Source: an uncultured Anaerolineales bacterium (lineage in GTDB: Bacteria > Planctomycetota > Phycisphaerae > FEN-1346). From it: a DNA stretch of 64,000 bases. Shown piece after piece: positions 18,552-19,211 of this stretch. The notes under the pieces are model-generated. The model was given only the letters and a program-made list of their open reading frames with translations. It did not search any database and was not told the origin of the DNA. The stretch is from contig CAYNLG010000002.1 of the NCBI GenBank assembly GCA_964397995.1, positions 34,444-98,443 of the forward strand. The letters are read 5' to 3'. A program made the translations under genes and the position numbers. Numbering within the stretch: position 1 is the stretch's first letter; each line of letters begins with the position of its first letter.

Positions 18552-19007
18552 TTACCGACGTTTCTGTCGAAAAAACGCCGTCAACACCTCCCCGCATGCT
18601 TCGGCCATCACCCCCCCCGTCACCTCCACACGATGGTTCAGGCGCGGCTCTTCCAGCAGCCGGAACACCGACGCCACTGCCCCCGCCTTCGGGTCCGTCG
18701 CCCCGTACACCAGCCGGTCCACCCGCGCAAGCACCATCGCCCCGGCGCACATCGCGCACGGTTCCAGCGTCACGTAGAGCGTGCACCCGTGCAGCCGCCA
18801 CGACCCCACCGCCTCGGCCGCCTGGGTGATGGCCAGCATCTCGGCGTGGGCCGTCGGGTCGCGCAGCATCTCGCGCTGGTTGTGGGCCCGCGCGATCCGC
18901 CGCCCTTCGTGCACGATCACGCACCCGACGGGCACCTCGTCCGCGTCCAGGGCCTCGCGGGCCGCCCGCAGCGCCTCGCCCATCCACCGCGCATCGTCGT
19001 CGGCCAT
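18552..19007 (-). CDS. tadA: tRNA-specific adenosine deaminase (A34 to I34 in tRNA-Arg ACG)
   Basis: CDA-fold zinc motifs HAEMLAI and PCAMCAGAM. Length 151 aa. Start at MADDDARW, 52 nt downstream of tRNA-Arg on the same strand. Confidence 0.88.
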   Translation of the reverse strand: MADDDARWMGEALRAAREALDADEVPVGCVIVHEGRRIARAHNQREMLRDPTAHAEMLAITQAAEAVGSWRLHGCTLYVTLEPCAMCAGAMVLARVDRLVYGATDPKAGAVASVFRLLEEPRLNHRVEVTGGVMAEACGEVLTAFFRQKRR

Positions 19008-19059
19008 CGGCTGCCCCCAAAAAGAACCGGCCCGCCGCGAAGCGGGCCGGAAGGTCGGC

Positions 19060-19136
19060 TGGTACGCCCGGGAGGATTCGAACCCCCAACCCTCGGTTCC
19101 GTAGACCGATGCTCTATCCAATTGAGCTACGGGCGT
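19060..19136 (-). tRNA. tRNA-Arg (anticodon ACG), CCA encoded
   Basis: Reverse complement: acceptor ACGCCCG/CGGGCGU, D-arm GCUCAAUUGGAUAGAGC, anticodon stem AUCGG/CCGAG with loop UCUACGG, T-arm GGGGGUUCGAAUCCUCC, then A-CCA. Very similar to E. coli tRNA-Arg(ACG). Confidence 0.9.
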
Positions 19137-19182
19137 GCGCCCGGCCCCCCGGCGGCACGCCGCCCCGGAGGCCAAGGGTCGA

Positions 19183-19211
19183 ATCATACGCCCCCGCCCT
19201 GCGCCTGTCAA
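19183..19211 (-). promoter_or_regulatory. Sigma70-type promoter for the tRNA-Arg/tadA unit (TTGACA-N17-TATGAT on the minus strand)
   Basis: Perfect -35, near-consensus -10, 17-nt spacer, ~45 nt upstream of the tRNA 5' end. Confidence 0.5.

Follow-up and report, generated by a model that had tools for sequence, protein, structure and literature searches.

A tRNA-Arg(ACG)-tadA linkage with an intervening terminator-like hairpin in a Phycisphaerae bacterium: a putative leaky two-gene unit

We investigated how tadA, the gene for the tRNA adenosine(34) deaminase, is placed relative to a gene for tRNA-Arg(ACG) in 64,000 nucleotides (nt) of DNA from an uncultured Anaerolineales bacterium (GTDB lineage Planctomycetota, Phycisphaerae, FEN-1346; contig CAYNLG010000002.1 of assembly GCA_964397995.1), the whole of which is called the window. 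On the minus strand, from 19211 down to 18552, a promoter-like site, tRNA-Arg(ACG), a 52-nt spacer and tadA follow one another, and the spacer holds a GC-rich hairpin with a T-tract behind it. On balance we lean toward a two-gene unit driven by one sigma-70-type promoter, in which tRNA-Arg(ACG) would be followed by a leaky terminator and tadA would be reached by read-through. What is read directly from the sequence is which elements are present, how they are ordered and conserved, and that the link between tRNA and tadA is specific. The parts of the locus are:

19183..19211, minus strand: sigma-70-type promoter-like site (-35 TTGACA at 19211..19206, 17-nt spacer, -10 TATGAT at 19188..19183)
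19137..19182, minus strand: predicted 5' leader of the precursor tRNA (pre-tRNA), GC-rich, as read from the sequence
19060..19136, minus strand: tRNA-Arg(ACG) (ARAGORN; Rfam RF00005 at 66.1 bits, gathering score 29)
19027..19050, minus strand: GC-rich hairpin CCGGCCCGCU-UCGC-GGCGGGCCGG, with 10 pairs (9 of them G-C) and a 4-nt loop
19019..19026, minus strand: T-tract TTCTTTTT, directly after the stem
19008..19018, minus strand: the 11 nt between T-tract and ATG, GGGGGCAGCCG (GGGGG at 19018..19014, then CAGCCG)
18552..19007, minus strand: tadA, including the stop codon, with the ATG at 19007; tRNA adenosine(34) deaminase of 151 amino acids (NCBIfam NF008113)

A preliminary description of this DNA had placed a "perfect" TTGACA-N17-TATGAT promoter ahead of the tRNA. 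The site and its position were confirmed, but it matches 11 of the 12 consensus positions and so is not perfect. Our scan was limited to sigma-70-type consensus sites (-35 and -10 hexamers with 16-18 nt between them), and on both strands of 17800-20000 it returned this site as the sole promoter-like one (0.2 expected from shuffled sequences). The end of the -10 element lies 46 nt from the 5' end of the tRNA, and RNase P would cut off the leader between them.

Exactly 52 nt separate the CCA from the ATG, and the earlier coordinates for a tRNA-Arg(ACG) with a 3' CCA, and for a tadA start 52 nt further on, proved exact. The preliminary description had seen no terminator in between and had named one as grounds for abandoning its model; a 10-pair hairpin followed by TTCTTTTT was found there in silico. 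The hairpin begins 9 nt past the tRNA CCA (centroid structure -22.1 kcal/mol), the T-tract ends 11 nt upstream of the tadA ATG, and the GC-rich stem, short loop and immediate U-tract on the transcribed strand together give the spacer the form of an intrinsic terminator. We read hairpin plus T-tract as an intrinsic-terminator-like or attenuator-like signal, and as a unidirectional one because the opposite strand has no T-run. It is the sole terminator-like match in 17800-20000 and the strongest within positions 1-20000, and over the 60 kilobases (kb) scanned a longer stem (14 pairs) was found only at 36299..36266. The segment between T-tract and ATG has no room for a promoter, being only 11 nt long, and its GGGGG possibly plays a Shine-Dalgarno-like role.

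The tRNA folds into a cloverleaf with anticodon ACG, anticodon loop CUACGGA and an encoded 3' CCA (ARAGORN, Rfam), its body is identical to that of one relative (L166), and it is the tRNA that we take to be the substrate of TadA. The protein scored 176.9 bits against the NCBIfam equivalog NF008113 (cutoff 150; residues 4-150 aligned to positions 6-152 of the 165-position profile), and carries the zinc and catalytic motifs H54-A55-E56 and P83-C84-A-M-C87, the Pfam domains MafB19-deam and dCMP_cyt_deam_1 (111 bits), and an N-terminus that aligns with its relatives (M..DD.RWM.EALR). By family score and motifs it is a genuine TadA, predicted to deaminate A34. The preliminary description had called A34 of tRNA-Arg(ACG) the only essential bacterial substrate of TadA, a statement that has to be softened: some bacteria have a second A34 tRNA, tRNA-Leu (PMC8266599), and in B. 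subtilis tadA (yaaJ) is dispensable (PMC10454642). An Rfam scan around the locus placed the tRNA alone above threshold; matches below threshold to suhB/mmgR (20.8 bits), YrlA and Plastid-ycf2 were judged to be chance. Long open reading frames (ORFs) on the two strands overlap (18552-19298 and 15409-18236), including one of 248 amino acids that reads in frame across the tRNA and on into tadA; they are artefacts of the high GC content and could lead an automatic gene caller to extend tadA wrongly.

The layout recurs in close relatives, defined here by TadA homologues at 74-85% identity (Phycisphaerae or Planctomycetes where named). Five of them bear the tRNA (L001, L002, L166, L169 and L171/172). 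The -10 of the promoter-like site lies 46 nt from the tRNA in L001 (TTGACA-17-TATCAT) and L002 (TTGACA-17-TATAGT), exactly as in the window; L166 has TTGACC-17-TATAAG upstream of its tRNA, and L169 and L171 have TTGACA-16-TACACT. A GC-rich hairpin and then a T-run follow the tRNA in all six loci (the window plus the five relatives), in a position conserved across L001, L002, L166, L169 and L171. From the end of the T-run to the start codon there are 20-23 nt in L001, L002, L166 and L171, about 81 nt in L169 and 11 nt in the window. No second promoter-like site was found from 300 nt upstream of the tRNA to tadA (0/6 loci), and the stretch from the end of the tRNA to the ATG has no TANNNT-type -10 element; within the sigma-70-type scan, the earlier claim of a single promoter held for the window, and a single site was likewise seen in the five close relatives. 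Flanking genes all differ between loci (NTP_transferase and DUF4955 in the window; glycoside hydrolase, NadA and amino-acid permease elsewhere), so that the tRNA-tadA pair alone has been kept together.

When the hairpins of the window, L166, L002 and L001 were aligned, 94% of cells were paired. The 3' arm GGCGGGCCGG is invariant among these four, and the 5' arm varies by C/U opposite G only; because G-U pairs work on the tRNA/tadA sense strand alone, pairing is preserved on that strand only. The hairpins of L169 and L171 have another sequence and stand in an equivalent place, and their different register kept them outside the covariation alignment.

We then considered 172 tadA loci from relatives (80 genomes, 80 metagenomes and 12 obtained by exact-protein look-up), all scanned for tRNAs. 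A same-strand tRNA-Arg(ACG) lies within 200 nt upstream in 24 of the 164 loci that have at least 250 nt upstream of tadA (23 when the near-duplicates L171 and L172 are counted once). This frequency of 15% applies to a sample of TadA proteins sharing at least about 52% identity with the query and does not estimate the rate across bacteria. Carriers whose genomes are titled belong to Planctomycetota (Phycisphaerae and Planctomycetia) and Myxococcota, the other carriers being unlabelled. Any same-strand upstream tRNA was present in 26 loci, and it was Arg(ACG) in 24 and Ser(GGA) in two. Spacers of 17-36 nt without a hairpin occur in L009, L059, L065, L067, L089, L100, L101, L114 and L144, where there is no room for a separate promoter and transcription through the tRNA is effectively forced. 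We regard the linkage as real and specific because 24 of the 26 upstream tRNAs are Arg(ACG) and because many spacers are very short; judged by these counts, the adjacency of tRNA-Arg(ACG) and tadA is not due to chance.

Transfer RNA genes also adjoin tadA on its other side. A tRNA-Ser stands directly downstream in 34 of 153 loci, namely tRNA-Ser(CGA), in many cases with tRNA-Ser(GGA) after it, in the orientation of tadA and 11-250 nt past it (for example in L006, L009, L015, L016, L027, L030, L034, L049, L058, L059, L065, L067, L089 and L100). Titled genomes with this arrangement include Actinomycetes/Solirubrobacterales, Anaerolineae, Gemmatimonadaceae, Myxococcota, Planctomycetota, Latescibacterota and Bacillota; in the window, no tRNA-Ser follows tadA. 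A cluster Ser(TGA)-Ser(GCT)-Arg(ACG)-tadA-Ser(CGA)-Ser(GGA) was seen in the Myxococcota loci L065 and L067 and also in L100. These Ser and Arg neighbors indicate that tadA is an ORF embedded, in many lineages, in an old Ser/Arg tRNA cluster.

Besides the five close relatives with the tRNA there are seven distinct ones without it (L081, L082, L161, L162, L163/164, L168 and L175-180) and two that retain only a relic (L165 and L167), and this split makes the synteny patchy. A tadA promoter-like site of their own was found in five of the seven (L081, L161, L082, L168 and, weakly, L163), with L175-180, which represent one protein (P0055) and have a methyltransferase gene ending 63 nt before tadA, lying outside the promoter scan. 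The sites read TTGCCA/TTGCCC-17/18-GACAAT upstream of tadA in L081 and L161, and TTGACA-N17/18-TTAAAT in L082 and L168 (1960-2003); the latter end 6 nt before the tadA ATG, which suggests a leaderless mRNA. The site in L163 is weak (8/12 matches, 256 nt upstream), and L162 has no promoter-like site, its tadA lying 9 nt behind another gene. The contrast between relatives without and with the tRNA favors the tRNA promoter of the window being the promoter of tadA as well. An NTP_transferase gene stands upstream of tadA both in the window and in L163/L164, with an identity of 39% that leaves orthology doubtful, and for that reason no tRNA insertion or deletion was deduced from it.

Promoter activity, partial termination, read-through and RNA processing are what we infer from these elements, and they would combine as follows. 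RNA polymerase would begin about 40 nt ahead of the tRNA. Most transcripts would end at the hairpin with its U-tract (9-41 nt past the CCA), leaving pre-tRNA only, and a minority would continue into the tadA coding sequence, whose start lies 11 nt after the U-tract. The tRNA would be freed by RNase P and 3' processing, and the leftover tadA mRNA would retain the hairpin near its 5' end. Read-through by a minority would keep the enzyme at a low level, under the same promoter control as its substrate. The best reading of the locus would then be co-regulation, with much tRNA and little enzyme, and not a 1:1 coupling. The preliminary description had proposed that enzyme and target are coupled stoichiometrically, which is unsupported because an intervening terminator implies unequal output. 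Its proposal of co-transcription from the tRNA promoter fared better: relatives support it, but in its simple form it is weakened by the conserved terminator-like hairpin. The synteny, which it had offered as a check, does recur (24/164 loci), but patchily even among close relatives.

Several results weigh against a leaky two-gene unit. Weak terminator-like patterns in the window (60 kb scanned) are not above shuffle level, and because they are not enriched the use of intrinsic termination by this organism is unproven. Covariation in the hairpin is not significant and, with four alignable sequences, indistinguishable from shuffles. The closest TadA relatives (L081, L161 and L162, at 84-85% identity) lack the synteny, so the arrangement is dispensable. 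A tadA promoter of another type than sigma-70 could escape our consensus scan, and if termination were near 100%, tadA could depend on just such an invisible promoter. This last point leads to an explanation that is possible but in our judgment doubtful, namely two independent units: a monocistronic tRNA with an efficient terminator, and a tadA with its own unrecognized promoter (not sigma-70, or overlapping the tRNA or the hairpin), their adjacency being inherited order. The hairpin and U-tract do resemble a strong canonical terminator that is conserved in the clade, and the promoter-like sites of several close relatives without the tRNA indicate that tadA can be expressed independently. Such a promoter would, however, have to fit where merely 11 nt (window) or 20-23 nt (L001, L002, L166 and L171) separate the T-run from the start codon, in a spacer with no TANNNT-type -10 and in a set of six loci with no second promoter-like site, and the hairpin-free spacers of 17-36 nt show that the pair is co-transcribed in other lineages.

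Unimpeded co-transcription with stoichiometric coupling, as originally proposed, would require the hairpin to be a non-terminating element of processing or stability, protecting either the 3' side of the pre-tRNA or the 5' side of the tadA mRNA. Two genes share one promoter-like site, and canonical terminators are rare in the window, so that the organism may make little use of them. We nevertheless think this unlikely: a T-run always follows the hairpin in the six loci despite differing stems, which is the signature of termination, and, as a general consideration, a catalytic enzyme has no evident need of 1:1 output with an abundant tRNA. It is very improbable that the two genes are neighbors without bearing on expression, whether by chance or as what remains, through hitch-hiking, of an old tRNA cluster. 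The tRNA-Ser genes downstream of tadA in 34 of 153 loci are not TadA substrates, and these and the patchy synteny would fit a remnant, but the predominance of Arg(ACG) among upstream tRNAs (24/26), the persistence of the pair while other neighbors change, and the very short spacers do not.

In two close relatives the place of the tRNA is taken by a relic:

L165:1769-1862: D-arm-less tRNA-Arg(ACG)-like element between promoter-like site and tadA
L167:1802-1895: D-arm-less tRNA-Arg(ACG)-like element between promoter-like site and tadA

The sole promoter-like site upstream of tadA in these loci (TTGACG-17-TAGAGT or TAGGGT) is followed immediately by the relic. Its D arm has shrunk to 1-3 nt, its scores against the Rfam tRNA model (19.8 and 20.2 bits) are under the gathering score of 29, and ARAGORN did not call it; the relic is probably non-functional as a tRNA. 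It retains the anticodon arm with the loop CUACGGA, the T arm and the 3' end CGGGCGUACCA, and its 5' acceptor strands differ between the two loci, with 6 of 7 positions paired in each. Over the stretch between the start of the anticodon arm and the CCA, L165 and L167 agree at 46 of 51 positions (90%), compared with 47 of 77 four-fold degenerate sites of tadA (61%), which argues that the relic is under constraint. L165 also retains a weakened hairpin and T-run. A pattern search of the 172 loci for further D-arm-less relics matched L165 and L167 only; the P0055 loci, tried as another example, were rejected: 63 nt before tadA they have a methyltransferase gene in its place.

These two loci suggest that disabling of the tRNA left tadA under the tRNA-proximal promoter, and the relic itself could be a constrained pseudo-tRNA or a mimic of the TadA substrate in the tadA leader. 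The retained CUACGGA loop and the constraint hint at a further possibility, decidedly unlikely in our estimate, that a cis-regulatory sensor in the tadA leader is formed by the tRNA or by just its anticodon arm: on the nascent transcript, TadA would attach to its substrate, or to a mimic of it, and thereby tune terminator read-through or the fate of the mRNA. The anticodon arm is, according to the original tadA work, reportedly the minimal TadA substrate. Such autoregulation through substrate mimicry would be comparable to the thrS operator, and if the relic is autoregulatory it is a directly testable element in two relatives. A TadA-substrate-like hairpin was also sought in the window spacer and rejected, the spacer having no UACG.

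The preliminary description had called the arrangement non-standard, which overstates the case: the E. coli metY-nusA-infB-truB genes have the same logic (PMC6511841). In the full operon, metY-rimP-nusA-infB-rbfA-truB, the terminators t1 and t2 lie between the tRNA and the first ORF, primary transcripts join pre-tRNA and mRNA, and downstream products act on that very tRNA, with IF2 binding the initiator tRNA and TruB modifying U55 (PMC6511841). By analogy we take this operon to be the closest precedent. The window has the order of the metY-nusA-infB type, that is, promoter, tRNA, terminator and protein gene on one strand; in both, the tRNA heads a unit behind a promoter and an intrinsic terminator, or terminator-like signal, precedes the first protein gene. 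The window differs in having one protein gene, not six, in an enzyme specific for one tRNA species, and in that no P2-like internal promoter was detected by the sigma-70-type scan; NusA-type autoregulation is not known for it, and as a unit it is predicted from sequence. By this comparison it would be of a known kind, the tRNA-plus-protein operon with an internal terminator, the logic of which is already textbook for metY-infB-truB.

Other systems share single features with the locus. The E. coli tufB operon (thrU-tyrU-glyT-thrT-tufB) joins tRNAs and the mRNA of a translation protein behind one promoter, the tRNAs being cut from the leader; unlike the window, it is not known to have a terminator before tufB, and EF-Tu is abundant and not specific for those tRNAs. 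In rpsU-dnaG-rpoD, an internal leaky terminator keeps dnaG low and yields very unequal output from one promoter, but no tRNA is involved. In pylT-pylS and selC-selAB, the gene of a special tRNA is linked to that of an enzyme acting on it; those pairs concern aminoacylation or recoding and are patchy and often horizontally transferred, whereas tRNA-Arg(ACG) and TadA are core components of translation. The E. coli genes for tRNA-Arg(ACG) lie in serV-argVYZQ, and tadA is about 120 kb away behind pgpC and outside the tRNA operon, so that the linkage is invisible in the model organism. The Ser(GCU)-Arg(ACG) order of serV-argVYZQ recurs in the tadA-containing clusters of L065 and L067 (Myxococcota) and of L100.

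No description of a tRNA-Arg(ACG)-tadA linkage was found in the full-text literature searched, including reviews of TadA and studies of tadA in Mollicutes and B. subtilis, which does not prove that the linkage is undescribed. The linkage would escape gene-neighborhood methods that use proteins only, because tRNA genes are ignored there, and these tRNA-blind methods together with its absence from E. coli may explain why it is undescribed in the literature that we found. Little work has addressed how the level of a tRNA-modifying enzyme is adjusted to its substrate in bacteria. A conserved tRNA-Arg(ACG)-tadA operon would offer a definite mechanism that is open to testing, in which the enzyme would share the growth-rate control of its substrate, with the terminator setting the ratio. 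The extent of A-to-I editing of mRNA is set by TadA dosage (PMC5630033, PMC13170351).

Repeated motifs were noticed near tadA in some relatives. The motif GCGCTGAAAGG occurs in 2-3 copies just upstream of the tadA promoter in L165 (1735-1765) and L167 (1750-1800) and directly before the tadA ATG in L163 (1975-2000), and is absent from the window; it is a candidate for a regulator-binding site common to these relatives. Two relatives have a similar palindrome, CACTGGCGG(N4-6)CCGCCAGTG, in the tadA 5' region: L161 (470-560), which has no tRNA, and L169 (1950-1980), which has one; this palindrome may be a dispersed element of the repetitive extragenic palindrome (REP) type.

Elsewhere in the window, positions 11567-11842 hold tRNA-Lys(TTT) and tRNA-Glu(TTC) with one promoter-like site apiece (TTGAAT-17-TAGAAT at 11567; TTGACA-16-CATAAT at 11687, within the 81 nt that separate the two tRNAs); in contrast to tRNA-Arg, tRNA-Glu(TTC) has no terminator-like hairpin downstream. 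The only other strong terminator-like hairpin of the window, that at 36299..36266 on the minus strand, has three promoter-like sites (10/12 matches) nearby within 36000-37800, at 36202, at 37581 and, as a weaker pattern, at 37588; transcription signals may be denser in this region, or its GC content lower. Ahead of the tRNA promoter is a gap of 630 nt that is unusual for a genome of about 70% GC. At 19540-19780 it has a T-rich tract on the minus strand that carries 21-nt repeats (three copies, AAAAAAAGACAGAAAGAGCCA-like when read on the plus strand) and a 40-nt direct repeat containing palindromes (GACACTATAGGC / GCCTATAGTATC); the gap could serve regulation, or could be a scar left by a mobile element adjoining the tRNA.

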